Positions 2,027-30,710 of a stretch of 32,000 bases of DNA are shown in pieces (within the stretch, counting starts at the first letter, position 1; every line of letters begins with the position of its first letter). Source of the stretch: Pyrolobus fumarii 1A. Lineage in GTDB: Archaea; Thermoproteota; Thermoprotei_A; Sulfolobales; Pyrodictiaceae. The notes under the pieces are model-generated. The model did not search any database and had not been told where the DNA came from. It was given only the letters and a program-made list of their open reading frames with translations. A program made the translations under genes and the position numbers. The stretch spans positions 960,001 to 992,000 of the forward strand of contig NC_015931.1 of NCBI RefSeq assembly GCF_000223395.1, read 5' to 3'.

Positions 2027-2066
2027 GGTATCCGTTTTAGGCTGGTGGGTGGAAGGTGTACCACTA

Positions 2067-5360: not shown

Positions 5361-5366
5361 TTTTTT
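5361..5366 (+). terminator. Oligo-T terminator after the surface protein gene
   Basis: TTTTTT lies immediately after the TAA stop at 5358-5360. Archaeal termination typically occurs at oligo-T. Confidence 0.4.
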
Positions 5367-5576
5367 ATGTGCTTCGTGTAACACGAGTGTCATAATCCAC
5401 AGCCTTGTGCTTTTTAGGGCGTTTGTGCTCTATGCATAACCGGACAACAACGTTCTAAGGTTATCATAATGCGTGATGAATGAGTAGAGGTATCCTAGTG
5501 ACGAATTAGCTCGTGTTGGAAGTGAAACGATTCTGTATGAACTTGCAGGTATAGCGTGTTGGGCGATAAGCGGGGG

Positions 5577-5582
5577 TTTAAA
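5577..5582 (+). promoter_or_regulatory. TATA-like box upstream of trpA
   Basis: gggggTTTAAAcgg lies about 40 nt upstream of TTG 5622. Confidence 0.3.
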
Positions 5583-5621
5583 CGGTAGGAGTGACGGCGG
5601 CTAACGTGAGGCAGGGAAGGG

Positions 5622-6380: not shown

Positions 6381-6435
6381 GTGGTTCAGTCTCGCCCTCG
6401 TTCATCACCATTCAGCCGGACCCGACGTCACATCA

Positions 6436-6948: not shown

Positions 6949-7010
6949 TTTTGGCGGGTAAAGCGAGACTATTACATATGTCTCGAGCACCGATTTATCA
7001 CCCCCAGATA

Positions 7011-7025
7011 GCTCGGTAACCGAGC
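7011..7025. promoter_or_regulatory. Perfect 15-bp palindrome in the PadR / MMPL divergent intergenic region; candidate operator
   Basis: GCTCGGT-A-ACCGAGC has 7-bp arms. It lies 4-10 nt upstream of the MMPL start (GTG 7029 / ATG 7035) and about 12 nt downstream of a plus-strand TTTATC (6994-6999). This places it over the expected transcription start. Confidence 0.4.
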
Positions 7026-7028
7026 GGT

Positions 7029-10000
7029 GTGAGAATGAGTGTAGCTGGTTTCATCGCGAGGCATCCGCTGCTAGTGATTAGCGTATGGTTATTGGTGGCA
7101 TTGCTAGCTACGCCGCTCTTCATGGAGCTAAACACGGTTGTCAAGAGTATCCAGTACTCTCTGCCGCCAGGCAGCGAGGCTGAACAAGCCGAGAAGCTCC
7201 TCACGAGCATAAAGAGTGGTGGTGCTCACCCGGCGATAATAATAGTCGAGAACGTAGATCTCAGTGATAATGCGACGCTTGTCAAGCTAGTCCGGTGGGG
7301 ACGCGTATTCAACGAGAGCTTCGAGGAGAAGAAGCTAGGTAGTAACCTCGTCAGCGTCCCAGTGATGCTCGCGTCTATCAACGAGAGTATCTACCAGAGG
7401 CTCCTCGAGGGCATAGAGAAGGGCTCGGAGGGCGCAAGTGAAGCCTACCGCGCACTCCTACAGCTAAACGAGAGCTACACCATAGCATACCGTAACCTCA
7501 CAACCATGATAGAGCAGCTAAATGAGGCTGTGAAGGGCGTCGTCAAGGCCGACCGGGGGTACAGCGAGGCCTACCACGGCCTCCTAATGTTGACGAATGC
7601 TAGCGTCGCAGTGGCACAAGGTCTGGTCGAGCTTGATAAGCGTGTAGTGAACGCGACCGAACAGTTGCTCCTAGTGGCATCCAAGCTTAACGAGACTGCT
7701 TCTAAGCTCGCACTTCTAGACAAAGAGGCTAGCCAGCTGGCAGCCAACCTTACAGAGACGGCAGCCCTCCTCAGGAGCATGCTTGGCAACGAGAGCATAG
7801 TATCGAGGATAATGGAGGGTGTAGCCTTCACCTGGTGGCAGGTCAGCAGAACCTACGAGTACATGGAGGCGTTCAACGGCAACTATACAATGTATGTGGC
7901 CTACACTAACTTAACACTCATAGACCCGAGGCTAGCCCCGTTACCATCTAGCGAGGCGAAGCTCGTCTGGCTTAGCGTCCGCAACCTAACACTCCAGGGC
8001 ATTGACCCGGATAGAGCGTCTCTCCAAGTCGCAGAGAAGCTGGTGGCGGAGCAGCTGGCTACGCGCGACGCTAGGCTAGCAAAGCTGCTACCACTGTTCA
8101 CCCAGGTCTACTGGAAGATGCTAGAGGCGGAGAAGCAGAGGCTCAACGTGACAAGCCTAGCAAGCCTCTATAGTCTCGATCCGCGCCAGGCGCCATATAC
8201 GCAACTCCAAGTCCTTAGCATCGCGCGCAGTGCGGGTGGCAACGCAACGCTCTACATTACCAGCCACGCGGATGAACTTGTGTCAACCCTACTCTCCGAG
8301 CAGATGAAACGCATGGGTATCGACGAGGAAACGGCGGTACAGCTGTCACAAGCTGCGGTAGAAGGTCGCATACCGGCCTACCTCGCGGCCAAGGCTGTAG
8401 TAGAGCTAGCGTCGCGAACGTACCCAGAGGTATCCACGGTAGCAGACCTACTCATCGAAGCCATAAGCAGGTACGACCCGGGCCTAGAGGCTAGCCTAGC
8501 GACCAACCGTACGCTTGCGGTACGTGCGGCATCCGAGATGTTAGTGAAGCTTGGTGTACCGCGTAACATAGTTGAGCTTGTAGCGCCCCTAGTCGAAAAG
8601 AACATTACAAGCCGTGAGGCTTATGCTACTGCCGCATACCGCCTCATTAAAGAGATGCTTGTCAGAGTAAAGCCTGAAGCCGTACAACTCCTGCCACTCG
8701 TTGAGAAGTACGACCCGCTCGCAGAGGGGAGGCTAGTCTCCGACAGGGCAACGTTGAAGGCTGCCGTGATGGAAGCCTTGAGTAGAGTAGCAGGCGAGAG
8801 GCTAGCGCAACTTCCTCGCGAACTCGTAGAGTGGATAGTTAGCAGAGTGGTTGAGGGTAACCAGCCGAGTCCGGAGGAGTTGCGAGAGAAGGCGATCAGC
8901 CTCGTAGAGAGTATGCTCGCGGAGATGGTTGGCAAGGAGAAGGCTAGGCTGATCGTCGAGATACTGGAGAAGTATGATCCGGAAGCTGATGCGACACTAG
9001 CTCGCAACACCACTCTTGCGGTACAGGCGCTGGTTGAAGCCTTCGAGGGGCAGGAGGCGAGCATACCCGTCAACAAGACCGTGGTAATTGAGCTGGTCGA
9101 GCATCCCGAGCAGCTTAACGAGACCTTCTGTAGGCTATTCCGCGAAGAAGCACTCAAGCGTGTACCAAGCGAGGCAAAGACCCTAGCCGAGAGGGCGATT
9201 AACACGCTATGCGAGAAGGGGAGACTAACAGACAGCGATGTGTGGCTACTAGTACGCGAAGCAATCGAGGAGAATATAGGCAGGATAAGCGCCAACTTCA
9301 CGGGTGTCAGTCTCCCGGAGTGGCTCAAGCCTCAACTCGTTAACGCTATACTTGCGGTGGCGCGTAACGAGACTAGACCCGAGGTTGAAGCCGCTAGGCT
9401 CTCAACCTTAATCCTGCTACGTGACGTGACGCCCAAGGTGATGAGTGAGGCTAAGGGACTACTAGTAGCTCGTGACCTCAAAGGCTTCATAGTGATGTTC
9501 GAGCCTAGTGGCAATGTGAGCGACGAGAGGGTCGAGAAGATCCTGGAGGCGGAGAAGCTAGTAAAGGAGACGCTCTCTCGCTTCGTCAGCGGCTTCAACG
9601 TTCGTATGACGAGCTCGGACCTCGTGATGAAGGAGGTTCGCGAGTATGCGCTCGAGGATATAGAGAAGACTAGCAAGATAAGCGAGGCTGCGACGTTTCT
9701 CGTGCTACTCTTGATACTCGAGAGCCTCTTTGCAGTGGCAATGCCGTATCTCGGCATAGGCCTAGGCATAGTGCTCGGCGGCGCCCTGGTCTTCCTTGCC
9801 GCCAGGTACGGGCTCATAGATGTCACGAACGAGGCACAAACGCTAATGATAACAACGGCTCTGGGTCTCGGTGCGGACTACGCCGGTTACCTGGTCCACA
9901 GGTTCCGCGAGGAGTACGCGATAGTCGGTGATGCTAGGCGGGCTGTAGAGAGGGCGCTGAGTACAGCCGGTCCAGCGATAGTGGCCAGCGCGTTTACCGT

Positions 10001-11276
10001 GATAATCGGGTTCGCCAGCCTCCTCCTTGGCTGGGATATAGCGTTCCTACGCAGCCTCGGCGAAACCATACCAATTACTGTAGCGGCGACCGCCCTGGCG
10101 AGCCTAACGCTGGTGCCGGCGCTCCTAGCGCTGCTAGGCGGGCGCTCGTGGTTCTGGTGGCCGAGGAGACCAAGCATAGAGAGGCATGTGGGCCGCGAGA
10201 GTAGGCTGATGAAGAGCCTGCTCAGACACCATCGTGTTGTGCTAGCGGTGCTAGTGGCAGTGTTCCTAGTAGCTGGGTACTTCTACGTGAACTTCCACGG
10301 CAGTCATGACATGAAGCTTATGCTCCCCGAGAATGCTGACGCAGTAAAGGCCTTTGATACGCTCAAACGTGAGTATATGCCAGGCCTCACTGATCCGATA
10401 TTCGTCACGCTAAAGCTACCCAAGAGCTTCCACGAGAGTATTGAAATGCAAACGCTTGTCGAGAACCTTGCTAAGCGTATTGAGCGCGTGGAGGGCGTCG
10501 GTATAGTGGTGGCGCCCAACGCGACTAGCGGCGAGACAAGCAGCCTGGTGAGCAGCGACGGCAAGATTGTTGCTCTCCAGGTGATACTCTCGGCAGACCC
10601 GTATAGCTGGGACGGTGAAAAGACGATCAGAGAAGTGCACCGGATTGTACACGAGTATGCAGAGACACATGGTATCGAGGCGTATGTGGGTGGAGCCCCA
10701 TTCGCGGTAATGGAGATGGATGAGATACTCCACGAGCGCTTCTACTACCGTATACTCCCGGCGGCCAGCATACTCATGGTGGCCGCGTTCACCGGCATCT
10801 TCGGCGCGCTCCCAGTGAGCATAGCCGCACTGCTAGTAATCATAGGCGCCGCAATGACAGGCATTATGGCGAGTGTTGCGCTGTTCCAGTGGCTGCTCGG
10901 CAAACCGATACTATGGTTCCTACACATTGTGACGATGGTTGCGGTGCTAGGCGTGGGCATGGATTACAACAGCTTCTTCCTAGCAAGGGCGCTTGAAGAG
11001 TGTAGAAAGACGAACTGTGACGTCGAGAAGGCCCTGCCGCGCGCCGCTGGTGCAGTAAGCCTCTTCGTGGTTGGCCTGGCACTTGTAGTCTCTAGCGCCT
11101 ACCTGTCACTAATGGCGAGCAGCAACGTAGGCATGAGAGAAATGGGCTTCACGCTAGGCTTGACGGTCATGCTGGCTGGCATAATGGCTGCATACCTCTT
11201 CACGCCGCTAGTTATAGCTGTGTTGCGGCATCGTGCATGGTGGCCGCGCGGGATGAAAAGGAAGGTTGTGCATTGA
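7029..11276 (+). CDS. MMPL/RND-superfamily membrane transporter with a greatly expanded first extracytoplasmic domain
   Basis: A 1415-aa ORF; ATG 7035 is an alternative start. N-terminal TM LLVISVWLLVALLATPLF. First TM bundle with the signature GLGADYAGYLVHRFREEY. Second TM bundle with GVGMDYNSFFLARALEE. The overall topology is 12 TM. About 850 aa of mostly helical, sequon-rich sequence lies between TM1 and TM2. Confidence 0.85.
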   Translation: MRMSVAGFIARHPLLVISVWLLVALLATPLFMELNTVVKSIQYSLPPGSEAEQAEKLLTSIKSGGAHPAIIIVENVDLSDNATLVKLVRWGRVFNESFEEKKLGSNLVSVPVMLASINESIYQRLLEGIEKGSEGASEAYRALLQLNESYTIAYRNLTTMIEQLNEAVKGVVKADRGYSEAYHGLLMLTNASVAVAQGLVELDKRVVNATEQLLLVASKLNETASKLALLDKEASQLAANLTETAALLRSMLGNESIVSRIMEGVAFTWWQVSRTYEYMEAFNGNYTMYVAYTNLTLIDPRLAPLPSSEAKLVWLSVRNLTLQGIDPDRASLQVAEKLVAEQLATRDARLAKLLPLFTQVYWKMLEAEKQRLNVTSLASLYSLDPRQAPYTQLQVLSIARSAGGNATLYITSHADELVSTLLSEQMKRMGIDEETAVQLSQAAVEGRIPAYLAAKAVVELASRTYPEVSTVADLLIEAISRYDPGLEASLATNRTLAVRAASEMLVKLGVPRNIVELVAPLVEKNITSREAYATAAYRLIKEMLVRVKPEAVQLLPLVEKYDPLAEGRLVSDRATLKAAVMEALSRVAGERLAQLPRELVEWIVSRVVEGNQPSPEELREKAISLVESMLAEMVGKEKARLIVEILEKYDPEADATLARNTTLAVQALVEAFEGQEASIPVNKTVVIELVEHPEQLNETFCRLFREEALKRVPSEAKTLAERAINTLCEKGRLTDSDVWLLVREAIEENIGRISANFTGVSLPEWLKPQLVNAILAVARNETRPEVEAARLSTLILLRDVTPKVMSEAKGLLVARDLKGFIVMFEPSGNVSDERVEKILEAEKLVKETLSRFVSGFNVRMTSSDLVMKEVREYALEDIEKTSKISEAATFLVLLLILESLFAVAMPYLGIGLGIVLGGALVFLAARYGLIDVTNEAQTLMITTALGLGADYAGYLVHRFREEYAIVGDARRAVERALSTAGPAIVASAFTVIIGFASLLLGWDIAFLRSLGETIPITVAATALASLTLVPALLALLGGRSWFWWPRRPSIERHVGRESRLMKSLLRHHRVVLAVLVAVFLVAGYFYVNFHGSHDMKLMLPENADAVKAFDTLKREYMPGLTDPIFVTLKLPKSFHESIEMQTLVENLAKRIERVEGVGIVVAPNATSGETSSLVSSDGKIVALQVILSADPYSWDGEKTIREVHRIVHEYAETHGIEAYVGGAPFAVMEMDEILHERFYYRILPAASILMVAAFTGIFGALPVSIAALLVIIGAAMTGIMASVALFQWLLGKPILWFLHIVTMVAVLGVGMDYNSFFLARALEECRKTNCDVEKALPRAAGAVSLFVVGLALVVSSAYLSLMASSNVGMREMGFTLGLTVMLAGIMAAYLFTPLVIAVLRHRAWWPRGMKRKVVH
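8448..9050 (+). repeat. Three tandem ~80-90-aa helical protein repeats inside the MMPL ectodomain
   Basis: The copies are LLIEAISRYDPGLEASLATNRTLAVRAASEML, LLPLVEKYDPLAEGRLVSDRATLKAAVMEAL and IVEILEKYDPEADATLARNTTLAVQALVEAF. The Tyr codons of the YDP motifs are at 8472, 8709 and 8973, a spacing of 79 and 88 codons. DNA-level similarity is only gagaagtaYgaYccg. Confidence 0.6.
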
Positions 11277-11324
11277 GACGGTGCGACTATCGTGACGGCA
11301 CGCTACTCGACAAATGTCATACAC

Positions 11325-11329
11325 TTTTT
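11325..11329 (+). terminator. Oligo-T run downstream of the MMPL gene
   Basis: acacTTTTTacg lies about 50 nt after the TGA at 11274-11276. Confidence 0.3.
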
Positions 11330-11390
11330 ACGTCATTTCATGCATTGCTGGTTACGCGCTAGGCGCTGCGCCATGGGGGTTACTTGTATT

Positions 11391-11413
11391 GAATTGTGTT
11401 TTATGCACAATTC
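11391..11413. promoter_or_regulatory. Perfect 8-bp inverted repeat (GAATTGTG-N7-CACAATTC); candidate operator of the 11469-13138 operon
   Basis: Read directly: gaattgtg ttttatg cacaattc. It lies 12 nt upstream of the TATA-like TTATAAAG (11425-11432) and about 55 nt upstream of GTG 11469. Confidence 0.45.
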
Positions 11414-11424
11414 GTGAACCCACG

Positions 11425-11432
11425 TTATAAAG
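11425..11432 (+). promoter_or_regulatory. TATA-like box of the 11469-13138 operon
   Basis: TTATAAAG lies about 37 nt upstream of GTG 11469, consistent with a very short leader. Confidence 0.4.
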
Positions 11433-11468
11433 CCAAGCGACAGCAGTACATTCTCTTGATGGGAGATA

Positions 11469-11924
11469 GTGTTGAGCGTAAAGCTAGGCGTCGTAGCCGC
11501 GATAGTAGTAGCAGTGTTGATTGCGGCGTTCCCGCTATACGCTGATGCTCTTAGACCATTCATATGGCAGCATTACGCGGAGACGCGCGAAGGCGGCTAT
11601 GGATGGAGGGGTGGTGAAAGCGAGGCTACAAGCACAGCGGTAGCTACGTATGAACCGGGCGAGGAGGTAACCATAACCGGTGTCATAGAGAAGATCGATG
11701 TTAATGAGGGTAGTGTAACAGTCAACGGCGAGAAGATTATCGTGCGGGGCACGTGGATCGTCGAGACCCCCGAGGGCAAGAAGGAGGTGTACTTCGACGA
11801 GTTGTTGACGATGCTGAAGCCCGGTGAAAAGGCGAGCATCAAGTGCCGCGTCTCCGGCAAGTGGGGTCTTATAGCACTTGAGATAGAAACACCAAGCCTA
11901 AAGGCAGAGAAGAGCGAGGGGTGA
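11469..11924 (+). CDS. Small N-terminally membrane-anchored protein with a beta-rich (OB-like?) C-terminal domain, function unknown
   Basis: A 151-aa ORF with a GTG start. TM LGVVAAIVVAVLIAAFPLY, then EEVTITGVIEKIDVNEGSVTVNGEKIIVRGTWIVETPEGKK. Its stop overlaps the next start (ATGA-type overlap at 11921-11924). Confidence 0.6.
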   Translation: MLSVKLGVVAAIVVAVLIAAFPLYADALRPFIWQHYAETREGGYGWRGGESEATSTAVATYEPGEEVTITGVIEKIDVNEGSVTVNGEKIIVRGTWIVETPEGKKEVYFDELLTMLKPGEKASIKCRVSGKWGLIALEIETPSLKAEKSEG

Positions 11925-12217
11925 TGCCCATGGTCAACGTGTATATGACTCTACGTACCGTGAGCGTCGTCCTGCTGGCAGTCTTCGGGTTATTGACGCT
12001 AATCAGTGGTATGATACTCGCAACAGCGCCCCACGGCCCCGGAAGCGGCGATGCTACTGCACTGGGTATCAGTAAATCCGATTGGAATGCGATACGCGAG
12101 ATAGTGGCGTTCATAGCAGCTGGTGCGGCCGTGCTGCACGTGTATGCAAATCAGCGTGCACTAGCGTTCCACTTTAAGCGTGCTGTAGGAGTGACGCCAT
12201 CTGCCGGAAGGAGGTGA
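11921..12217 (+). CDS. Small 2-TM membrane protein, DUF4405-like (conserved His pair)
   Basis: A 98-aa ORF. VSVVLLAVFGLLTLISGMILATAPHGPG...WNAIREIVAFIAAGAAVLHVYANQRAL has two TM helices, each followed by or containing His. This resembles the DUF4405 pattern as I remember it. It overlaps the upstream gene by 4 nt. Confidence 0.5.
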   Translation: MMPMVNVYMTLRTVSVVLLAVFGLLTLISGMILATAPHGPGSGDATALGISKSDWNAIREIVAFIAAGAAVLHVYANQRALAFHFKRAVGVTPSAGRR

Positions 12218-21224: not shown

Positions 21225-21272
21225 CCGGGAATAAACGCTAGCAGGCCAGCTGCACGGCGGTCGGGCGACAAT

Positions 21273-22010
21273 TTGGAGGCGCTAGTGGCCATACTAGTAG
21301 GCCTCCTCGCCGGCATAGTCGGGAGTATAGCCGGGCTAGGCGGCGGCGCGATAATGGTACCACTATTGATACTAGCTGGCGTTGAGCCCCACCACGCAGT
21401 ATCGGCTAGCCTCTTCGCGGTACTCGGTACGAGCCTAGGAGGCATAATCCACCTGCACAAGGAGGGCCTCCTAGACACCAGGCTCGCCGTTACGCTAGCA
21501 ACGGCTAGCGTTACGGGTGCAGTCATAGGTGCTTACGTAGCCGTCAACATACCCGGCCGTGTCATAGTAGCCATAGTTGTACTCGTGCTCGTTGCTTCGG
21601 GAATCATTGCGCTCAGGGGCCCTCGTAGCGCAGCAAGGCAAGGATCCCATGCAATCCCCTTGGCTTGGGCTGTGCTACTCGTCGGTGGTTTTGTCGGCGC
21701 GCTGGCTGGTAAGGGCGGCGGTAGCTTCAACATGCCGGTATTGATTGGGATAATGGGCCTCGACTCTAGACGTGCTGCAGCAACATCAAAGCTAATGGCG
21801 GGTTTCAACGCCGCTACGGCTACACTCGTGTATGCGATGCACGGCATGCTAGACCTTGCGCTAGCAGTGCCTCTAGTCATCGGTACATACACTGGTGCAA
21901 CAATAGGCTCGAGGCTAATAACACGCATGAAAATAGAGCATCACAAGCTGATCGTGGCGGTGATATACTTTGTGCTAGCGGGCGCGGCAACGGTAAAACT
22001 CGTAGGGTAG
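21273..22010 (+). CDS. TauE/SafE (TSUP)-family anion exporter membrane protein
   Basis: A 245-aa polytopic protein with the duplicated glycine-rich motifs GLGGGAIMVPLLIL and GKGGGSFNMPVLI typical of TSUP. Confidence 0.8.
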   Translation: MEALVAILVGLLAGIVGSIAGLGGGAIMVPLLILAGVEPHHAVSASLFAVLGTSLGGIIHLHKEGLLDTRLAVTLATASVTGAVIGAYVAVNIPGRVIVAIVVLVLVASGIIALRGPRSAARQGSHAIPLAWAVLLVGGFVGALAGKGGGSFNMPVLIGIMGLDSRRAAATSKLMAGFNAATATLVYAMHGMLDLALAVPLVIGTYTGATIGSRLITRMKIEHHKLIVAVIYFVLAGAATVKLVG

Positions 22011-22041
22011 GCGCGGCGCGACAAGCTACTGGTGCACACGC

Positions 22042-22665
22042 ATGGGTAACGTTTACCACATACGTCTTCCAGCCTCCCGCGAGGATATCGAGAAGCTGCG
22101 TGTAGGGGACACCGTCTACCTCACCGGTATAATCGTGACAGCGCGTGACCAGGCTCATCGTAGGATACTCGAGCTCGTGAGGCGTGGAGAAAAGCTGCCC
22201 ATCGATCTCAAGGGGCTTGCTATATACCATTGTGGTCCTGTGGTGAAACGCGAGGGTAGCGAGTGGAGGGTTATCGCTGCGGGACCCACAACAAGCTACC
22301 GCATGGGTATGCTGGTAGCCGAGGTTGTGAAGGCTACTGGCGCTGCATTCGTGATAGGGAAGGGTGGGTTGCCAAGCGAGGCGGCCAAGGCTCTAGCAGA
22401 GGCGGGTGGCGTGTATCTAGCATTCCCGGGTGGAGCGGGAGCCCTGGCAGCCACTAGGATCAAGAGCGTCGCTGGGGTATACTGGCTAGAGGAGCTTGGC
22501 GTTCCAGAGGCGCTCTGGGTGTTCGAGGTTGAGGAGTTCGGCCCGATGACAGTAGCGGTTGACGTTCATGGCGGCAACCTGTACGAGGATGTTAGAAGCA
22601 GAGTGTCCAGTAACGCCGCGCAGGCGAAGAGGAGGCTCATAGAATCCCTAGCTGTTCTACCTTAA
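22042..22665 (+). CDS. Fe-S hydro-lyase beta-type subunit (class I fumarate hydratase / tartrate dehydratase beta subunit)
   Basis: LRVGDTVYLTGIIVTARDQAHRR, IYHCGP, AAGPTTSYRM and FVIGKGG are motifs of the FumA C-terminal/TtdB family. Confidence 0.75.
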   Translation: MGNVYHIRLPASREDIEKLRVGDTVYLTGIIVTARDQAHRRILELVRRGEKLPIDLKGLAIYHCGPVVKREGSEWRVIAAGPTTSYRMGMLVAEVVKATGAAFVIGKGGLPSEAAKALAEAGGVYLAFPGGAGALAATRIKSVAGVYWLEELGVPEALWVFEVEEFGPMTVAVDVHGGNLYEDVRSRVSSNAAQAKRRLIESLAVLP

Positions 22666-22703
22666 ACCACCCTTTCCACTCATGCACGACGGCCAGGAGC
22701 GCG

Positions 22704-23864
22704 ATGAGCGCGCCATGCATCGAGTATGACGCGGGTGTCATACGCGAGCTTAAGAGGGTAGCGCGTAACGACAAGGCTCTCGAACTCCTCCTCTCGAGCC
22801 TTTGTGAGCCTCCACGTCGCTTATACGTGAGAGTAAACACGATGCGTGCTGATCCCGGGGAGGTGCTCGACGAGCTAAGGGAGCAGGGGCTACGAGCGTA
22901 TCGCGATGAGCACCTCGAGGAGGCTATCTGGTTTCCTGTGGAGGGTCCATTCCGCGTTCCCCGTGTGGATAAGCGCGTGGTTGTCGACAAGAGGACTGCT
23001 GAGAGCGTCCTGCTAGGTGCTCACGTCTATGCACCCGGCGTCATAGATATGGAGGGCGTCTCTAAGGGTGATGAGGTGAACATTGTAGCAGAGAACGGGG
23101 TGGTTGTTGCGTATGGCGTGGCGGAGATGAGCTGGGATGAAGTGCGGGAGAAGCGTCGCGGCCTAGCGGTTAGGGTTGTCGTCTCGAGGTTCCGCGCGCC
23201 TAGCACCAGGGAGCTGAGCGTCTGGAAAAGAGGGCTGATATATGAGCAGAGCTTACCCGCTATGTGGGCCTCGAGGCTTCTCGAGCCTCAACCCGGCGAG
23301 ATAGTGGTTGACATGTGCGCAGCGCCCGGGGGCAAGACGGGGCACCTTGTAGAGTTGACACGCGGTAAGGCGCGGATAGTAGCGATCGACCACTCTAGGT
23401 CGAAGATAAGGAGGATGGTTGAGGAGCTTGGGCGACTAGGGCATCTAGACCTGGTTCACATAGAGCAAGCTGATTCGAGGTACCTGGACCTAGACTACCC
23501 GATGCTTAGGGCGGATAGGGTGCTTCTCGACCCGCCGTGTACGGCGCTCGGCGTGATACCAAAGGTGTATGATAGGAAGACGTGGCGTGATGTTAGGAAC
23601 GCGGCGGAGTATCAGTGGCAGTTTGTGAAGGTTGCAGCCAAGATATTGAAGCCGGGAGGCCGTCTAGTCTACTCGACGTGCACGCTCACAGTTGAGGAGA
23701 ACGAGGCCATCGTGAGGAGGATGGAGAAGCTGGGGCTGCGTCTGGTCGAGCTGCGGGCGCCACGCTCCAGCATGGGTGTTGATGGTCTGCCGGTCTCGAG
23801 GTTCCTCCCCAGCGTTCAAAAGATGCCAGGCTATTTCATAGCCGTGCTTGAGAAGAGGGGGTAG
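22704..23864 (+). CDS. NOL1/NOP2/Sun-family RNA (cytosine-C5)-methyltransferase with an N-terminal PUA-like domain
   Basis: The SAM motif is DMCAAPGGKTGHL. The catalytic Cys motifs are DPPCTALGV and YSTCTL. The upstream segment KGDEVNIVAENGVVVAYGVAEM is PUA-like. Confidence 0.85.
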   Translation: MSAPCIEYDAGVIRELKRVARNDKALELLLSSLCEPPRRLYVRVNTMRADPGEVLDELREQGLRAYRDEHLEEAIWFPVEGPFRVPRVDKRVVVDKRTAESVLLGAHVYAPGVIDMEGVSKGDEVNIVAENGVVVAYGVAEMSWDEVREKRRGLAVRVVVSRFRAPSTRELSVWKRGLIYEQSLPAMWASRLLEPQPGEIVVDMCAAPGGKTGHLVELTRGKARIVAIDHSRSKIRRMVEELGRLGHLDLVHIEQADSRYLDLDYPMLRADRVLLDPPCTALGVIPKVYDRKTWRDVRNAAEYQWQFVKVAAKILKPGGRLVYSTCTLTVEENEAIVRRMEKLGLRLVELRAPRSSMGVDGLPVSRFLPSVQKMPGYFIAVLEKRG

Positions 23865-23902
23865 ACGCTCGTCCATCGTGACTGGCGGGGAGGCTAGCGA
23901 GC

Positions 23903-24406
23903 GTGACGGGAAAAGTGATGGTGTTGGATACCACGGCGTTTCTGGCAGGCTTGCCACTCATGCTCTATGGCGTGAGGCTGGTTGCACCACCGAGTGTGAT
24001 TGAGGAGGTGCGTGACGATGAGAGCCGCTCCCGGCTAGAGACAGCGATGCTGCTAGAGAGGGTCGAGGTGGTGAAGCCGAGGGAGAAGTACAAGTGGCGT
24101 GTGAAAAGGGCTGCTGTGAAAGTTGGTGTGCATGGGAGTCTATCCGAGACTGATGTTGAGGTTGCGGCGCTCGCGCTGCAGTTGAAGGAGGAGGGGCTAG
24201 AGGTGGAGGTGGTAACGGATGACTACGCGTTACAGAACCTCCTTGCAAGCCTTGGCGTTTCGTACCGCTCGTTAAGGACTAGAGGTATAAGCAGGTTGGT
24301 AAGGTACATCCTCGTGTGCCCGGCGTGTGGCTACACGTCGAGAAGGTACGGCGAGAGGAGGTGCCCAGTTTGCGGTGCACCACTTGTAAAACGGCCGCGC
24401 TCATGA
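23903..24406 (+). CDS. nob1: Nob1-type PIN endonuclease with a C-terminal zinc ribbon (pre-16S rRNA 3' end maturation)
   Basis: PIN acidic residues occur in VLDTTAF, EVRDDES and VVTDDYALQN. The zinc ribbon is CPACG-x13-CPVCG. The size of 167 aa fits archaeal Nob1. Confidence 0.8.
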   Translation: MTGKVMVLDTTAFLAGLPLMLYGVRLVAPPSVIEEVRDDESRSRLETAMLLERVEVVKPREKYKWRVKRAAVKVGVHGSLSETDVEVAALALQLKEEGLEVEVVTDDYALQNLLASLGVSYRSLRTRGISRLVRYILVCPACGYTSRRYGERRCPVCGAPLVKRPRS

Positions 24407-25635
24407 GCCTCATGCTACTCCTTGCCCTAGGCTCGGCAGCCTACGCGGCCAGTCTGGAGCAGCTTGCATACTTTGCAACTAGTATCTCGCTTGCACTCGT
24501 GGCCGGCGACTATCAGACAGCAGCAGTTGCTTCAACAAAACTATGCCTTGCTATAGCCGAGATGCCGCCAGGAGTACTACGCAACGACACTGGACTTGCG
24601 CAGAAACTTGCTATACTCGCGGCTGTTGTGGGTGGGGATACGGGGATAGACCCTAACCGAGCAAACCTAGTGTACTTGCATCTCGTGGGTGAGGCTCGTC
24701 TAGACCCCCAGGTCTGTACGGAAGGCGTGCCTCAAGCCTACTATTACAACGAGACACTCGGCAACCTCATCCCCCCAGAGGCGAACGTAACGACGTCCGA
24801 GAGAGCGGCAAAGCCTCAGGGCACAGAAACGCCACCAGCCGGGTCAATGCCAAGCTACGCTGGTGTAGCTCCTGGCGGCGAAGGCTCGGTTACAGAGAGT
24901 GACATAGAGGCTCTGACGAAGCTAGTCAAGAGTCTCAAGGGAGAGAACATAACCATGTACGAACCTAGCGGCTATACGCTGGCGAGGCTCGTCGCCGAGG
25001 ATATCCTATCCTCCCAGGGAATCCTCCCTACAAAGACGCAGGTGAACTTAGAGGAGGTGCTCACAGACTTATTCAGCGGTGGAGCGACGGGCGAGCAAGA
25101 TGTGCTAAAGACGCTGGAGCTGCCAGAGAGCATCGACGTAGGGAGGATATCGCTACTCTCGCTGCCAGCGGCTGGCGCCCCGCCTCTACCAAGCGTCAGG
25201 CTTCCAAGCATCACGCTACCCGAAGCCGGGTTCGACCCTGTACTTATTCTATTGCCGCTGGCGGTGGTGGCAGCAGCGGCGGTAGCATGGTATGGCAGGA
25301 GGGTAGTCTCCGCGTTTCGCTTCTCCAGAATAACACGGCTAGTATCGCGTGAAGCTGCAAAGGGTGAGGCAGCGGGTACGGTTGAGGAGATGTTCGCTAA
25401 GTTGCTTGAAGTGATAGGGACAAAGTGTAGGCCTCGCCAAGCCTGGGAGACACACAGAGAATATGCATCTGTTCTCCGCGAGTCAGCGAAGAACATCTAC
25501 ATGAAGGCGGCTCTAGCATATGAGGAGGCTAAGTTCGCTGGTCGGGGGACGGAAGACGCGTCTAGGGTTATAGCTGAGGCTGTGTCGCTCCTCGCGTCCA
25601 GGCTAGAGTGTAGCGAGGGAAGGGAGGAGGAGTAG
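24403..25635 (+). CDS. Membrane protein: signal peptide + ectodomain + TM + cytosolic DUF4129-like tail
   Basis: The track ORF starts at 24316 inside nob1. ATG 24403 (an ATGA overlap with the nob1 stop) gives the signal peptide MSLMLLLALGSAAYAAS. TM FDPVLILLPLAVVAAAAVAWYG. The tail RPRQAWETHREYASVLRES...AALAYEEAKFAGRG resembles DUF4129. Confidence 0.6.
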   Translation: MSLMLLLALGSAAYAASLEQLAYFATSISLALVAGDYQTAAVASTKLCLAIAEMPPGVLRNDTGLAQKLAILAAVVGGDTGIDPNRANLVYLHLVGEARLDPQVCTEGVPQAYYYNETLGNLIPPEANVTTSERAAKPQGTETPPAGSMPSYAGVAPGGEGSVTESDIEALTKLVKSLKGENITMYEPSGYTLARLVAEDILSSQGILPTKTQVNLEEVLTDLFSGGATGEQDVLKTLELPESIDVGRISLLSLPAAGAPPLPSVRLPSITLPEAGFDPVLILLPLAVVAAAAVAWYGRRVVSAFRFSRITRLVSREAAKGEAAGTVEEMFAKLLEVIGTKCRPRQAWETHREYASVLRESAKNIYMKAALAYEEAKFAGRGTEDASRVIAEAVSLLASRLECSEGREEE

Positions 25636-25636
25636 C

Positions 25637-26911
25637 GTGGACTACGTGAGGTACGGTAAGTGGGTCTCAATCGCTGTGCTCATACTGGCGCTTGTGACGC
25701 TCCCATACCTTTCTCTAACGATACCACTGCGCCTACAAGCAACAGTCTATGATGATGGCCCCGAGGGTTTTACAGAGTTTGTTTCCGAGCTACGTGCGAG
25801 AGGAGTACAAGTGTATCTACAGCTGCCGGACCCGAGCACCGTGAAAGATGCTGTACTACTCCTTCTTGATCCGCAGTTCTGCCTCTACTACGAGGATCTA
25901 GAGCAATGGGTGGAACGTGCAAAACCCAGACTAATAGTGGTCATCGGTGAATCTCTGTGCGCCAGGTGGATAACTGCACGGTTGGACAGCGCGTTTGCCC
26001 GCCTGGAGTACAGCCTAGTTGATAGTGGTGTGCTTAGGCTCGGTGATGTCAGCATACCCACTATCAGCATTCTGGCGATGAGCGGCGAGGGCGTCAAGCC
26101 TATAGGGTATGTCGGCGGGAGGGCGGCGGCGGTTACACACGGCTCGATCATATTTATCGGCGACTCGGACTTCCTCCGTAATGACGCGCTCCAGGCAAAT
26201 CCAGACACTCTAGACACTATTGTGGAGCTGATGGGTTGTGATGCTGGCTGTACGGTAGTGATGCCATCGGTCTTCGAGACTGGAGCTATAGGTTTCGCGT
26301 TATCCGCCTACCAGCTTGCGAGGATACTCGTAGAGATGCTTGCGAATCTCGAAGAGATGTTTCTCCGGCTATCTCGCGGCCTAGCAGTCTTGGCGTACGT
26401 GCTTGTAGCGGGGTATGTTGCTTACAAGTTGTTCCTCGGAGGTTTTACGCGGGGCAAAGAGGAGATTTACCACGTTGCACCACGCCCGTCTATCTACGGC
26501 TACACGAGGCTATACCAGCGGATAGTAGAGGGCGGGAAACTGTCCACCCTAGAGGCGAAGACTGTCATAATGAGGCTCTACGAGATTACTGATAGGGTGC
26601 TTAGGGTTAGACTCGGAGCCGGTATCGACGAGATTGTTGGCAACGAGGAGCTGGTAGCGAGATTGTCAAGTGCAACGGGCATCGATCGTGAAGAGCTTAG
26701 TGTGTTGCTTCGGAGGCTATACAAGCTCTACAGGAAGGCTGCTGGATTATCGCGGAGACCGTTGATTGTGAGATGGCGTAGAGAGTCTGAGCGTATGGTC
26801 ACGAGCCTAGGTCGAGTGCTTAAAGGTCTAGGTGTTGAGCTTGAGAAGCTACGTGGGTTGGAGGTGGTAGTAGAGTATGGCGAGTCTAGAGCCAGTGAGA
26901 AGTCTAGCTGA
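25637..26911 (+). CDS. Two-TM membrane protein with a DUF4350-like ectodomain
   Basis: GTG start 1 nt after the previous stop. TM1 [17 protein letters not shown]. The ectodomain contains [27 protein letters not shown]...[15 protein letters not shown] and [15 protein letters not shown], a DUF4350-like pattern recalled from memory. TM2 [19 protein letters not shown]. The C-terminus is helical. Confidence 0.55.
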
Positions 26912-27821
26912 GAGAGTCTTGGGGCAAGTGCGTAAGGTGGTATACGGGCTTGACGAGCAACTGAAGATACTCCTCGCGTCTCTTCTTGCCGAGGGTCACG
27001 TCCTCCTGGAGGGCGTGCCGGGTGTAGCGAAGACGACACTAGCCAAGGCCTTCGCATCGAGCATGTCTCTCAGCTTCAAGAGGATCCAGTTTACGCCGGA
27101 TTTACTCCCCAGCGACGTGATAGGCACGATGGTATACGACCAGAAGAGCGGCGAGTTTAGGCTAAAGAAGGGCCCGATATTCGCCAATATAGTGCTGGCT
27201 GACGAGATTAACAGGGCGTCGCCGAGGACTCAGTCGGCTCTCCTCGAGGCGATGCAGGAGAGGCAGGTGACCATCGAGGGTAACACGTTGAGGCTGCCGG
27301 AGCCCTTCATGGTCGTGGCGACGCAGAACCCGATCGAGTTTGAGGGTACGTTCCCACTGCCAGAGGCGCAGCTGGACAGGTTCCTAGTCAAGATTGTCGT
27401 GCCGAGGCCATCCAGGGAGGTGTTGAAGCAGGTTCTTCGCAACTATGGTGTGATTAGAGAGTGGCCTATCGAGCCGGTGGCCACAGCGGAGGATGTACTC
27501 GAGGCGAGGAGAGCCGTGTGGAGCGTCAGGGTGAGCGACTCGGTGCTAGACTACATAGTGGAGATTGTTGAGGCTACGCATCGCCACCCGCACGTGAGGT
27601 TGGGCGGCTCCCCGAGGGCAGCGATAGCCATGCAGCAGCTCTCCAGGGCGCTCGCGGCGATGGAGGGTAGAGACTACGTGATACCCGATGATGTGAAGCT
27701 CGCGGCGAGATACGTGCTGCCGCACCGCATAATCTTGAAGCCCGAGGCTGAGGTTGAGGGGGTCACACCCGAGGCTGTGGTCGAGGAGGTGTTGAAATCT
27801 GTCCCAACACCAGTCCCGTGA
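26877..27821 (+). CDS. MoxR-family AAA+ ATPase
   Basis: Motifs are [21 protein letters not shown] (Walker A), [42 protein letters not shown] (Walker B and sensor), [22 protein letters not shown] and a C-terminal GGSPRAAIA. It overlaps the upstream gene by 35 nt. Confidence 0.9.
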
Positions 27822-27837
27822 CGCCACGCCATTACGG

Positions 27838-29190
27838 TTGACGGGGAGAGGTGCAGCGTTAACACTACTACTCGCGTTGATAGCAGCCGCAGGTGTCGTT
27901 GGAGCGCCCAGTGGATTATCGGTTGCATATGCGGCTGGTATTGCTCTCCTGTCGTTGCTGGCGTACTGGCGTATAGTAGGCGTGGCTAAGGCTGCGGCGC
28001 TGAGCCGATTACGTGTTGAGAGGGTGATTGAGGGTCACAAGGTTGAGGGGAGGAAGCTTCGCGTCAAGGTTGAGATTCGCAATCCAACGCCGGTGCCATT
28101 CGAGCATATAGAGGTGTATGACGAGCCTCCGTGGCTTTGGAGGATAGACGGTCAGCCCAGGGTTGCGGTAACCTTACCAGCTAGAAGTAGAATGATTATC
28201 GAGTATGACGCGGAGCCGGTCTATGGTGAGCACGTATTCGGGCCAATTAGGCTCGTTGCTTACGACCCGTTGGGCCTGTTTCGCGTCGAGACGCGCGTGG
28301 GTGGAGAGACGAGTGTGAGGATTGCGCCACGTACGCTTGGCGCCGTTAGGGGTGTGTACCTGGTACCGTCGCTTCCTAGGCCGGGTGGTGTTGCACCCGG
28401 GCGGCGTAAGGGCGCCGGCACGACGATATACGATGTTAGGGAGTATGTGCCGGGTGACGACACCCGCCTCATAGACTGGAAGGGCTTCGCGCGTACTGGC
28501 AGGCTGCTCGTGAAGGAGTTCGAGCAGGAGGTGCAAGTGTACACTCTCCTTGTGCTTGATGTGACTGGCACGATGCTTCTAGGAGCGCTTGGTGAAACCA
28601 AACTGGAGAACACGGCGAGGGTCGTGAGGACGATAATAGAGTATGTGGCGTCGCGTGGGGACGTGTATCGGGTCGTAGTGATAGACAGGGATGGTAAGCT
28701 CTACTACACTCCATGGCTACGCGGGAGAGCAACAATACATCAGGCTGTAGAGCTTCTCTCGAGTGTTAAATGGGGTAAGGCTAGCGAAGAACCGCCGGGT
28801 GAAGAGGAGCTTGAGGCCAGGCTGGCGTCCCTGAGGGAGCTGGCGAGGCTAGCTGGTAGAGAGAAAACGCTCATCTTCGTGTTCACGGATGCCTATGAAT
28901 CGCCACAAGTAGCTAAACGATATGCTGAGGTGCTCTCAAAGCTGCGTCTCTTGCATCACGATGTGCAAGCGTTGATACCTTTGACGGCATATTTCGAGGT
29001 GCAGTTATTGTCGCGTGACCAGCTTGAAGCGAGTCTCTACGCTCTACTAGCCTATGAGAAGCTGCGAGAGTATACGGAGATACAGAGGGTGTTTAGGAGG
29101 AGTGGTATTCCGGTTGTGGCTACGGGTCCCGTGCGGCTGGTCGAGACGGTTCTCGAGAAGCTCGAGGCTTATCGGAGGATGCTCTTCTAG
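27838..29190 (+). CDS. DUF58-family membrane protein with an Ig-like module and a vWA-like C-terminal half
   Basis: TTG start. Two N-terminal TM helices. KLRVKVEIRNPTPVPFEHIEVYDEPP is Ig/CARDB-like. The DUF58 signature is YDVREYVPGDDTRLIDWKGFARTGRLLVKEFEQE. LLVLDVTGTML is a MIDAS-like D-x-T-x-T, and LIFVFTDAYES is the TDG-strand equivalent. Confidence 0.85.
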   Translation: MTGRGAALTLLLALIAAAGVVGAPSGLSVAYAAGIALLSLLAYWRIVGVAKAAALSRLRVERVIEGHKVEGRKLRVKVEIRNPTPVPFEHIEVYDEPPWLWRIDGQPRVAVTLPARSRMIIEYDAEPVYGEHVFGPIRLVAYDPLGLFRVETRVGGETSVRIAPRTLGAVRGVYLVPSLPRPGGVAPGRRKGAGTTIYDVREYVPGDDTRLIDWKGFARTGRLLVKEFEQEVQVYTLLVLDVTGTMLLGALGETKLENTARVVRTIIEYVASRGDVYRVVVIDRDGKLYYTPWLRGRATIHQAVELLSSVKWGKASEEPPGEEELEARLASLRELARLAGREKTLIFVFTDAYESPQVAKRYAEVLSKLRLLHHDVQALIPLTAYFEVQLLSRDQLEASLYALLAYEKLREYTEIQRVFRRSGIPVVATGPVRLVETVLEKLEAYRRMLF

Positions 29191-29243
29191 CCTAGGCCTC
29201 TCCTCTGGAGGCCCGGGTAGGGGAATAGTTGCAGAAGGAGGTC

Positions 29244-30449
29244 ATGCGTAAGGCGCTGCTTATCGCAGCTGTTGTACTCCGGGTTGCGGCTGCCGCTTCT
29301 TCGGCGCTCGCGGCTTACGATCTAGCACCACACGTCATAACATCCTTGCCCGTATTGCCTATGCCAGGTGCAAAGGTAGTATCCCTGGCTGTAGCGGCGG
29401 CAGTGGCTCTACTCGCTCTCGTTGGGCACTATGGTGCTGCGATAGTGGCTCTTGGCATAATGGCGGCTGTGTATACAGCCCTGGGTATGAAGATTCCTAT
29501 CACGTTGCTTGCGGCTATAGTGTCCCTGCTACTTGCGCCTATGCTAGTGAGAAGAGCGGATGTAATGGAGGGTAGCGTGGTCGAGACGCGTCTATACTGC
29601 TCGTGGGGGTGTAGGCTAGCAACGCCAGCGTTCTACATAGTGCTTCTCGTGGGGGCGTACCTGGTCTATGGTGCGGCTTTTGCCCTCGGCTATGCGGTTG
29701 GCTCTGTGCTTGAAAGCCTAGAGGTGATGCCGCAGCAGGTGGCGGCCATTGCTTACCTGGCTACGAGGTTGCTAGCTATGCGCATAATCATACTCCTCGT
29801 CATACTATGGGTGTTGTATAAGGCGATTGTTGGTCTCGCAGAGCCGCTAGTCTATACTATACTCGCGCACCCCAGGGATGTAGCCAGGCTGGTCAACAGC
29901 ATACTCGAGGGTGAGAGAAGAGCACTCGTAGAAGGCAAAACGTGGCACCACAAGCTCTACCTGAGTGCCGCCTCGCACGTGGCGGGCGTGATAACGCTCA
30001 TCATAGCTTACTCGCTGATGCGAGTGGCGAGTACAATCTACAATGTGCTCCTAGGGGGACAGCCGTTACCCTCGGCTATCCTCGCCGCCGAGAAGTTTAC
30101 CACAATGACAGCCCCATTGTGGGGATTGGCGACCTACTACGCCGCCTACCGCTTCACCAGGAGGAGGATACAGTCAACGCTCGCAGGCGGCGTGTCACCA
30201 CCACGTGCAACGCTTCCATTGCTGACCGTGCTTGCCGCCGCAGCACTGCTACTATACTCTGGACTCAGCGATGTGCTACTCTCCGTGCTTTTGTGCCCAG
30301 TCCAACCGACGGCGTGCACCGGAGTACACGAGGCGGGCTTAGCCGCGAGGATAAGCATGGTGGTTAGCGCAGCGGCAGAGAGCATAGCGGCGAGCATAAG
30401 GCGGGGTGTAGAGCTTATAGACTCTATTGTTGCGATGCTCTTCGGGTAG
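29244..30449 (+). CDS. Polytopic (about 8-10 TM) membrane protein of unknown family, terminal part of the MoxR cassette
   Basis: The track ORF starts at TTG 29229. ATG 29244 is preceded by GAAGGAGGTC. The protein is hydrophobic throughout, with one ~50-aa cytosolic-looking loop (HPRDVARLVNSILEGERRALVEGKTWHHK). I see no recognisable motif. Confidence 0.6.
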   Translation: MRKALLIAAVVLRVAAAASSALAAYDLAPHVITSLPVLPMPGAKVVSLAVAAAVALLALVGHYGAAIVALGIMAAVYTALGMKIPITLLAAIVSLLLAPMLVRRADVMEGSVVETRLYCSWGCRLATPAFYIVLLVGAYLVYGAAFALGYAVGSVLESLEVMPQQVAAIAYLATRLLAMRIIILLVILWVLYKAIVGLAEPLVYTILAHPRDVARLVNSILEGERRALVEGKTWHHKLYLSAASHVAGVITLIIAYSLMRVASTIYNVLLGGQPLPSAILAAEKFTTMTAPLWGLATYYAAYRFTRRRIQSTLAGGVSPPRATLPLLTVLAAAALLLYSGLSDVLLSVLLCPVQPTACTGVHEAGLAARISMVVSAAAESIAASIRRGVELIDSIVAMLFG

Positions 30450-30455
30450 GTCACA

Positions 30456-30710
30456 GTGGCAAAGTTTGGCGATGTAAGGTACTGGGTGAAGACGGGTGCA
30501 GCTCTAGCCTTTGTCGCGGTCACCCTATGGCTATCCTACTACTTCTTCGTAGTTGGGGTAGGCCTAGTTTCTCGCATGAGCGTGGTAGCAGGCGTGCTGT
30601 CAGCGGCGATAGGCTTCGCGCTTCTCTCAGCCTCTGTGACCGTAATGAGGGACTGGGTGCTAGCTATACGCGGCAGAGAAGGTCGCGAAGAAGCCGGAGC
30701 ATCATCCTAG
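30456..30710 (+). CDS. Small 2-3-TM membrane protein, unknown
   Basis: An 84-aa ORF with a GTG start 6 nt after the previous stop. It has two or three hydrophobic helices and an acidic/basic tail. Its 3' end overlaps the convergent DUF72 gene by 47 nt, so it is less certain. Confidence 0.4.
   Translation: MAKFGDVRYWVKTGAALAFVAVTLWLSYYFFVVGVGLVSRMSVVAGVLSAAIGFALLSASVTVMRDWVLAIRGREGREEAGASS

Follow-up and report, generated by a model that had tools for sequence, protein, structure and literature searches.

A conserved six-gene membrane cassette around a MoxR ATPase and a DUF58 protein in Pyrolobus fumarii 1A

A cassette of six genes, here named g1 to g6, was analysed in a 32,000-nucleotide (nt) stretch of the genome of Pyrolobus fumarii 1A; this whole stretch is called the window below. 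The translations of g5 and g2 are 100% identical to Pyrfu_1046 and Pyrfu_1043, respectively. The cassette encodes a MoxR-class AAA+ ATPase, a DUF58 protein with a von Willebrand factor A (vWA) domain and four more membrane proteins, and it is kept as a unit in related archaea while the flanking genes change. Six packed same-strand open reading frames (ORFs) had been described here in the initial annotation of this DNA, and a re-check of the ORFs found all of them on the + strand with the claimed stops and junctions. Their coordinates in the window are as follows.

24370..25635 (alternative start ATG 24403), + strand: g1, signal peptide, ectodomain, transmembrane (TM) helix and DUF4129-like tail
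25637..26911, + strand: g2 (Pyrfu_1043), TM helix or signal anchor, DUF4350-like ectodomain, TM helix and basic tail
26877..27821, + strand: g3, soluble MoxR-class AAA+ ATPase (AAA_3 and AAA_lid_2)
27838..29190, + strand: g4, DUF58 protein with TM hairpin, immunoglobulin (Ig)-like domain and vWA domain
29244..30449 (alternative start TTG 29229), + strand: g5 (Pyrfu_1046), orphan protein with about 8-10 TM helices
30456..30710, + strand: g6, 84-aa two-TM hairpin protein

A gap of 1 nt separates g1 from g2, g2 and g3 overlap by 35 nt, and gaps of 16 nt and 6 nt lie between g3 and g4 and between g5 and g6. The stops, gaps and overlaps of the earlier junction list stand, but its ATGA overlap of g1 with nob1 at 24403-24406 probably does not. 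The reading frame of g1 is open from an in-frame GTG at 24316, upstream of ATG 24403, and the sequence points to TTG 24370 as the most likely start, because it aligns with the (T/G)TG-CGG at which the genes of two close relatives are called to start, GGAGGTG lies six bases 5' of it, and translation from there gives a normal signal peptide of the cleavable type with R and K in the n-region, a hydrophobic core and AYA|AS. One of these relatives has an in-frame stop further upstream of the aligned start. A start at ATG 24403 would leave the signal peptide without any charged n-region. With the start at 24370, g1 would thus overlap nob1 by 37 nt. The start of g5 is probably ATG 29244, since this codon has GGAGG 4 nt upstream.

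For comparison, a search with g4 yielded nine orthologues with 42-62% identity, and their contigs, together with a genome scan with a DUF58 alignment, provided the loci numbered L001 onward, most of which are contigs of metagenome-assembled genomes (MAGs). The loci were compared by local searches with hidden Markov models (HMMs) and by maps of ORFs and TM helices. L001, L005, L006 and L007/L008 are relatives with 54-62% identity in DUF58, and L007/L008 are labelled Pyrolobus sp.; L009-L014 are Pyrodictiaceae and Desulfurococcales MAGs.

The product of g3 is the only one of the six without a TM segment by hydropathy, in agreement with the initial annotation, where MoxR was the only soluble member. 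It matches the Pfam families AAA_3 (226 bits, E 1.4e-67) and AAA_lid_2 (89.9 bits), and its translation shows the Walker A sequence GVPGVAKT and the Walker B sequence VLADEINR. Among solved structures 2r44 is the nearest (E 2.5e-83), and midasin AAA modules come next. The bpMoxR model is matched as well, at 46.5 bits and thus much more weakly than AAA_3. An adjacent DUF58 gene marks the MRP subfamily (Snider and Houry, as cited in PMC12067865), and the DUF58 gene g4 directly follows g3 at the 16-nt gap. A published phyletic table counts one arCOG00434 (MoxR), zero arCOG00435 and one arCOG02742 (DUF58) protein in P. fumarii (PMC5898192), and g3 and g4 appear to be the sole arCOG00434/00435 MoxR and the sole arCOG02742 DUF58 protein counted in this genome. 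Searches against NCBIfam added nothing specific for the cassette proteins.

The DUF58 assignment of g4 is firm, with 74.7 bits to PF01882 (E 8e-21) against a Pfam gathering cut-off of 23.4, and a match to VWA_2 reaches 23.1 bits (E 1.2e-4), below the cut-off of 27. An AlphaFold2 model built from 28 homologues has a mean predicted local distance difference test score (pLDDT) of 84.8 and a predicted template modelling score (pTM) of 0.77, and it consists of two N-terminal helices, a beta-sandwich (residues 59-163) and an alpha/beta domain (197-450). Hydropathy places a TM hairpin at residues 5-23 and 32-50. Foldseek relates the sandwich to TRAP and macroglobulin (MG)-type domains, and the alpha/beta part to the vWA domains of CMG2/ANTXR, TFIIH p44 and Rpn10. 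Model and fold search together bear out the earlier description of a DUF58 protein with two TM helices, an Ig-like module, the signature VREYVPGDDTRLIDWK, which is present in g4, and a vWA half. Residues D241, T243 and T245, a DxTxT motif resembling a metal-ion-dependent adhesion site (MIDAS), are invariant across the ten closest g4 sequences.

The N-terminus of g4 has one R before the first TM helix, an uncharged loop of 8 residues, the second TM helix and then a strongly basic stretch; the protein contains neither Cys nor N-X-S/T sequons. This charge pattern gives an N-in/C-in hairpin, and the Ig-like and vWA part is therefore predicted to be cytoplasmic, on the same side as MoxR, which fits its need to meet a soluble ATPase. 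The loop between the two domains (residues 166-196, window 28333-28425, consensus VPSSPRPGGVAPSRQKGVGT) is the best-conserved segment of g4 among close relatives, with 64-77% identity among L001, L005 and L006 and 45% to L004. Most of it (171-197) has a pLDDT below 50 in the AlphaFold2 model. The loop may be a binding or pore-inserting element.

The first two genes encode proteins with acidic outer parts and basic tails. The ectodomain of g1 has about 260 aa and a net charge of about -15, and it is followed by one TM helix at 288-306 (hydropathy and charge) and by a tail of about 115 aa with 20 K+R, which is predicted to be cytosolic. All four N-X-S/T sequons of g1 lie within the ectodomain, and none occurs in g2 or g5. 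Across the g1 family the ectodomain ranges from about 190 to about 830 aa without a recognisable domain, while the tail is conserved; compared with close relatives, g1 is 34-35% identical in the ectodomain and 45-50% in the tail. Neither a transglutaminase core nor a TgpA_N domain was found with Pfam in g1 or in the orthologues examined. In g2, a TM helix at 11-29 is followed by an acidic loop of 219 aa, a second TM helix at 249-267 and a basic tail of 157 aa with 30 K+R (hydropathy and charge). This tail is also predicted to be cytosolic and carries motifs conserved in the orthologue alignment. A word-indexed homologue search with g2 returned the query itself only. The earlier architectures, namely a signal peptide, an ectodomain of about 260 aa, a TM helix and a cytosolic tail for g1, and TM helix, ectodomain, TM helix and tail for g2, agree with hydropathy. 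The two tails were also considered as homologous domains, and this was rejected with an hhalign probability of 0.25%.

At least 8 hydrophobic peaks were counted in g5, corresponding to about 8-10 TM helices by hydropathy. Every attempt to place it in a known family was negative. A word-indexed search found only g5 itself, and phmmer, run exhaustively against 1.84 billion representative proteins, gave 10 sequences at E < 0.001, all of them unannotated. Pfam searches with 13 members of the g5 family hit no family, and a g5 profile against PDB sequences gave only a 26-residue match to CopM. The AlphaFold2 model of g5 is all-helical with a low-confidence pLDDT of 62.8, and Foldseek with this model returned nothing at E < 0.001. 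Conserved features are nevertheless visible in the alignment of 13 sequences: a Cx4C motif at a membrane boundary (residues 119-123, window 29598-29612) is conserved in 11 of them, a helical soluble insertion contains the invariant W234, and a C-terminal Gly is conserved. A second Cys pair (residues 351/358) is present in closer relatives only. Invariant columns number two in the 13-sequence alignment and six in a 10-sequence alignment. The small protein g6 is predicted to be an N-in/C-in hairpin with basic ends and has no significant match in Pfam.

The gene order, seen in a single genome by the initial annotation, proved to be conserved in about ten other Pyrodictiaceae and Desulfurococcales assemblies (L001, L005, L006, L007/L008 and L009-L014). 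The shared order comprises a protein with signal peptide, ectodomain, TM helix and DUF4129 tail, a DUF4350 protein, MoxR, DUF58, a protein of 405-434 aa with about 10 TM helices and a two-TM protein of about 80 aa. HMM matches to g6 were found in L009-L011, L013 and L014; L012 has a different small ORF at the last position, and L007/L008 end at the contig edge. Conservation is uneven along the cassette. In L001, L005 and L006, identity to the window protein is highest for MoxR (79-88%), followed by DUF58 (58-62%), g6 (48-62%), g2 (35-43%), g5 (31-35%) and g1 (30-34%).

An upstream context of nob1, RsmB and fumarase genes is common to L001 and L006-L008 and absent from L009-L014. Downstream, DUF72 and S2 genes are shared with L001 and L006; the neighbourhood of L005 differs, and L007/L008 are cut before the downstream genes. 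Between lineages, essentially the cassette genes alone are common, and no seventh conserved gene was found in the flanks across lineages. Since the flanks differ in this way, it is the cassette that is conserved as a unit and not the region around it.

Incomplete versions of the neighbourhood were also found. The metagenome contigs L003/L004 have a DUF58 gene (42% identity) followed by homologues of g5 and g6 (34% identity for g6, E 2e-12), with no MoxR, g1 or g2 within 8 kb. L015, a Hyperthermus MAG, has g1 (900 aa), g2, DUF58 and a 9-TM protein at 5791-12155 with no MoxR between g2 and DUF58, and L016 has a DUF4129 protein, a 328-aa two-TM protein and DUF58 at 2812-7113. The ATPase gene is therefore not constant in the neighbourhood, as L015 and L016 show. 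The arrangements in L003/L004 and L015 indicate that g5 and g6 track DUF58 rather than MoxR, and at all Desulfurococcales loci examined g5 lies immediately 3' of DUF58. Whether the two terminal membrane ORFs co-vary with the MoxR core had been raised as a check in the initial annotation; they are conserved, but they follow DUF58 and persist without an adjacent MoxR. Judged from gene content, DUF58, g5 and g6 may form a sub-module, given that g5 and g6 stay beside DUF58 where MoxR, g1 and g2 are absent (L003/L004).

In L004, the DUF58-g5-g6 trio (2954-7777, - strand) is divergent to genes for a KaiC-like ATPase, a vWA protein, an FHA protein and a Ser/Thr kinase (8001-10825). The same region of L003 has two unannotated ORFs in place of the vWA gene.

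The region upstream of the cassette is a same-strand run (21273-24406) encoding TauE/SafE, the fumarase beta subunit, an RsmB/PUA methyltransferase and the Nob1 PIN nuclease, in which the genes are 31-38 nt apart. Upstream, a single AT-rich TATA-like motif came up, at position 21230, and a simple search found no archaeal TATA-like motif within the cassette itself. The nob1 coding region contains a TATAAG at 24286-24291, which lies about 26 nt 5' of GTG 24316 and about 80 nt 5' of the likely g1 start, and could be an internal promoter of the cassette. Its conservation in L001 and L006 is only partial, in a comparison confounded by coding constraints. A scan for bacterial-type promoters and terminators, which is uninformative for an archaeon, gave no terminators, and Rfam gave no structured RNA in the window. 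A hairpin in the g4-g5 spacer (29195-29213) was rejected, as its folding energy is no better than that of shuffled sequences (z = 0.14).

We interpret the cassette as a membrane-anchored MoxR/vWA remodelling module that assembles or maintains a cell-surface complex of g1 and g2, and give this reading a probability of roughly 0.55. The best model for its operation is NorQ/NorD, in which the vWA protein inserts a finger into the pore of the hexamer and both an intact vWA domain and carboxylates of the client are required (PMC9976466). Its authors suggest that MoxR/VWA couples bind in this way in general (PMC9976466). By analogy, the MoxR hexamer would dock on the cytoplasmic vWA domain of DUF58 as NorQ does on NorD, with the conserved g4 loop 166-196 as the candidate for the finger inserted into the pore. 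DUF58 might then use its MIDAS-like site to grip an acidic residue of a membrane partner, most likely in the juxtamembrane DUF4129 tail of g1, the g2 tail or a loop of g5. ATP hydrolysis would pull on or remodel the gripped partner and so alter the conformation or assembly state of a complex that spans the envelope, with the ectodomains of g1 and g2 as its outer face. The parts that must meet are all predicted to face the cytoplasm, and their genes are inherited together.

Among these possible contacts, the DUF4129 tail deserves particular attention. In bacterial and other archaeal MoxR-DUF58 loci the third gene is of one of two types, BatA-type (see below) or TgpA-type (TgpA_N, transglutaminase core and DUF4129; L036, L042 and L077), and in the TgpA-type proteins DUF4129 begins 15-35 basic residues past the last TM helix. 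All g1 orthologues likewise carry DUF4129 behind their last TM helix. Its occurrence in the g1 family and in TgpA-type proteins thus marks DUF4129 as a recurrent juxtamembrane cytosolic tail, found in three partner architectures of MoxR-DUF58, and for this reason it is the prime candidate for the contact with DUF58 or MoxR.

Several points weigh against this interpretation. The TM and topology calls come from simple rules, namely a Kyte-Doolittle hydropathy window and charge counts (positive-inside), and arCOG02742, to which g4 would belong, is described as "extracellular vWF domain" (PMC5898192). In this genome, g1 matches DUF4129 (PF13559) with 20.9 bits (E 3.9e-4), below the cut-off of 24.8, and g2 matches DUF4350 (PF14258) with 26.6 bits (E 8.5e-6, profile positions 2-170 of 181), below 30.4. 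HMMs of the archaeal g1 and g2 families do not match the DUF4129 and DUF4350 proteins of Streptomyces, so that Pfam models are the only link between these families and the actinobacterial ones. The neighbourhoods lacking MoxR (L003/L004, L015 and L016) indicate that the genes of the membrane proteins need not have that of the ATPase beside them. Neither a client nor an output could be identified in the window, and the output as well as every contact of the mechanism is one that we infer.

The DUF4129 match of g1 lies near the C-terminus, after the TM helix, in a gene beside MoxR-DUF58, and the database entry for the g2 protein lists PF14258.13. Positional orthologues of g1 in L009, L011 and L013-L016 match DUF4129 at 32-51 bits and orthologues of g2 in L009, L011, L012 and L014 match DUF4350 at 31-45 bits, above the respective cut-offs. 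These orthologues are linked to g1 and g2 by HMMs from close relatives and so support the placement of both genes. The earlier assignment of 24403-25635 to DUF4129 and of 25637-26911 to DUF4350 is thus firm in the orthologues and sub-threshold in P. fumarii itself.

The outward transmission of ATP hydrolysis to the ectodomains, which the initial annotation had proposed, would be one use of this anatomy; the same anatomy fits outside-in sensing or secretion. For sensing, the variable and putatively glycosylated g1 ectodomain, perhaps with g2, would detect a surface cue and pass it through the DUF4129 tail to DUF58/MoxR, which would serve as threshold or transducer for a response in the cytoplasm. 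We consider this possible but doubtful. A precedent is the actinobacterial Esr pathway of Schaalia (September 2026 preprint), whose clusters encode a surface sensor, a transglutaminase, MoxR, vWA, a kinase and an FHA protein (PMC13622651). In the Esr model, contact with the epibiont acts through MoxR and vWA on phosphorylation and transcription; the genetics and phosphoproteomics cover the sensor (esrA), the transglutaminase (esrD) and the FHA protein rather than MoxR or vWA (PMC13622651). A sensing role would also suit a g1 ectodomain that varies in length and lacks recognisable domains above a conserved tail, the match of g3 to bpMoxR and the position of the L004 trio opposite KaiC-like, vWA, FHA and protein-kinase genes.

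However, no kinase, phosphatase, FHA, beta-propeller or transglutaminase gene was found in the cassette or the rest of the 32-kb window, and the likeness to Esr is drawn at the level of vWA, not of the DUF58 family. The kinase/FHA neighbourhood occurs in one lineage only and resembles the common crenarchaeal Arn cluster, and for these two reasons the adjacency in L004 may be due to chance. Membership in a defence system was rejected, as PADLOC gave generic P-loop matches only, which also counts against sensing; with regard to the MoxR-vWA-beta-propeller ternary conflict system, no beta-propeller, filamentous sensor, kinase, FHA or effector domain was found in the window. A more specific proposal, which we hold to be more doubtful still, is an envelope-sensing device in which g1 would read contact with a virus or epibiont, or envelope damage, and signal through DUF4129 to a DUF58-MoxR switch, with an ancestral DUF58-g5-g6 core that also serves kinase/FHA modules. 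If this were true, DUF4129-DUF58-MoxR would represent a principle of transmembrane signalling common to archaea and bacteria.

A secretion or export system, with g5 and g6 as conduit, a GldG-like DUF4350 domain outside and MoxR/DUF58 energising or gating the export of, for example, g1, seems unlikely to us. It would agree with a prediction made in 2015 and with the similarity of DUF4350 proteins to GldG by HHpred (both PMC5898192), with the membrane or extracellular location of most cassette products and with the multi-helix g5 directly after DUF58 at the Desulfurococcales loci. On the other hand, g5 has no detectable relation in sequence or fold to transporter or channel families, and its few invariant columns give no evident pore or catalytic signature. 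The N-termini of g1 and g2 are of the ordinary Sec type, so no special exporter is needed for them, and the S-layer-like Ig proteins (COG4743) of the 2015 model are absent from the cassette. To our knowledge, MoxR ATPases act as remodelling chaperones and not as translocation motors.

Still less probable is a maturation chaperone for an unlinked client, with metal insertion or enzyme activation as in NorQ/NorD and with g1, g2, g5 and g6 as anchors or accessories. Characterised MoxR/vWA pairs do act in cofactor insertion or enzyme activation (PMC9976466), and the apparently sole MoxR of P. fumarii, the conserved MIDAS-like motif of DUF58 and the conserved Cx4C motif of g5 could serve such a role. 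Against this, no candidate client is linked at any locus examined, the partners that are conserved are the cassette's own four membrane proteins, and the same partners, DUF4129 and DUF4350, recur in another domain of life. That the six genes are unrelated neighbours in a compact genome is very improbable, for although tight same-strand packing is common here and the run extends upstream with short gaps, the order persists across about ten assemblies with changing flanks, and the order of the four-gene core is identical in Streptomyces.

Two further features of the window lie apart from the cassette. An ORF of 1111 aa (2025-5360, + strand) has an N-terminal signal peptide, 38 N-X-S/T sequons, a C-terminal TM anchor and a short basic tail. 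Pfam assigns it to no family; it lies in the stretch of lowest GC content in the window (46-49% versus about 56%) and looks like a major surface or S-layer-type glycoprotein. A PadR-family regulator (6436-6990, - strand) is divergent to an MMPL/RND-type membrane protein (7029-11276, + strand) of 1415 aa, unusually long for the family.

Few prokaryotic ATPase modules of unknown function are as widespread as the MoxR/vWA pairs, and the membrane-linked DUF58 branch is without an established mechanism. The cassette shows this branch in a minimal, single-copy form, in a hyperthermophile genome of less than 2 Mb. Three testable points follow, namely a cytoplasmic Ig-like and vWA part of DUF58, DUF4129 as the tail that makes the contact with DUF58/MoxR, and membrane partners of DUF58's own, g5 and g6, which persist without an adjacent MoxR. 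If borne out, they would offer a handle on the homologous and equally uncharacterised clusters of Streptomyces and Mycobacterium, including Rv3689-Rv3695.

Literature searches on DUF4129, DUF4350, DUF58 with MoxR and the Rv numbers found no functional study, which supports the earlier statement that no function has been assigned to the cassette, and a 2025 review describes the role of DUF58 beside mycobacterial MoxR1 as unknown. The further claim of an uncharacterised system holds in that respect, but its novelty was overstated, as this kind of neighbourhood was predicted in 2015. Makarova, Galperin and Koonin (2015, PMC5898192) proposed a secretion or membrane-remodelling complex of arCOG01314 (DUF4350), a COG0714 ATPase, an Ig/vWA DUF58 protein and membrane proteins. 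In their table, neither P. fumarii nor Hyperthermus butylicus is credited with arCOG01314 (PMC5898192); with a score of 0 for P. fumarii, the present cassette was therefore not recognised as an instance at that time. Both systems combine a membrane-anchored DUF4350 protein with an outer domain, MoxR and an Ig+vWA DUF58 protein in one predicted operon, both include extra small and polytopic membrane proteins, and both are predicted only. They differ in that the S-layer-like Ig proteins of COG4743 (arCOG02884, arCOG02887) have no match among the cassette proteins in Pfam, although the table counts one arCOG02887 protein in P. fumarii at the level of the genome (PMC5898192). In addition, the DUF4129-tailed first gene is constant here, whereas DUF4129 is unmentioned in the full text of PMC5898192; the soluble part of DUF58 is predicted to be cytoplasmic here and extracellular there; and the g5 and g6 families have almost no members elsewhere.

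The statement that a DUF4129/DUF4350/MoxR/DUF58 neighbourhood recurs in actinobacteria proved correct. The Streptomyces hundungensis locus L088 has the identical order, with DUF7847/GPDPase_memb, DUF4129, DUF4350, MoxR and DUF58 and with SpoIIM and RDD genes nearby, and the same gene set is listed for the mycobacterial Rv3689-Rv3695 region. Identity to the L088 proteins is 51% for MoxR and, within the first ~250 residues, 28% for DUF58, which an HMM matches over nearly its full length. In contrast, a scan of the window ORFs of 110 aa or more found no DUF7847/GPDPase_memb, SpoIIM or RDD protein, and g1 has a large ectodomain, whereas the DUF4129 protein of Streptomyces has 229 aa. The idea that g5 is the counterpart of the Streptomyces DUF7847/GPDPase_memb protein was rejected with an hhalign probability of 0.2%.

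With the TgpA operons, the cassette shares the MoxR-DUF58 pair and a protein built of an extracytoplasmic domain, a TM helix and a DUF4129 tail. However, the DUF4129 protein is encoded upstream of MoxR here and downstream there, and g1 lacks the transglutaminase and TgpA_N domains. The bifidobacterial PFNA cluster (PMC12067865) contains a serine/threonine protein kinase, an FN3 protein, MoxR, DUF58 and a transglutaminase. Unlike Esr and PFNA, the cassette has no kinase, FHA or beta-propeller gene. The Bat (Bacteroides aerotolerance) operons also combine the MoxR-DUF58 pair with membrane-anchored partners, and BatA-type third genes (TM helix and vWA) were found in L048, L064 and L069, with a Haloferax variant in L051; in contrast, no BatA/BatB-type TM+vWA or TPR protein was found by Pfam in the cassette.

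Besides NorQ/NorD, CbbQ/CbbO, RavA/ViaA and CoxD/CoxE are further MoxR/vWA chaperone pairs, and the known pairs are soluble or peripheral and encoded next to a known client. NorQ/NorD resembles the cassette in a AAA+ MoxR hexamer partnered by a vWA/MIDAS adaptor, and it provides the only experimentally grounded working principle. It differs in that the adaptor is membrane-anchored here and the only linked client candidates are uncharacterised membrane proteins. Set beside all of these, the cassette is a lineage-specific form of an already predicted, uncharacterised system, with two membrane proteins that are almost unique to the lineage.

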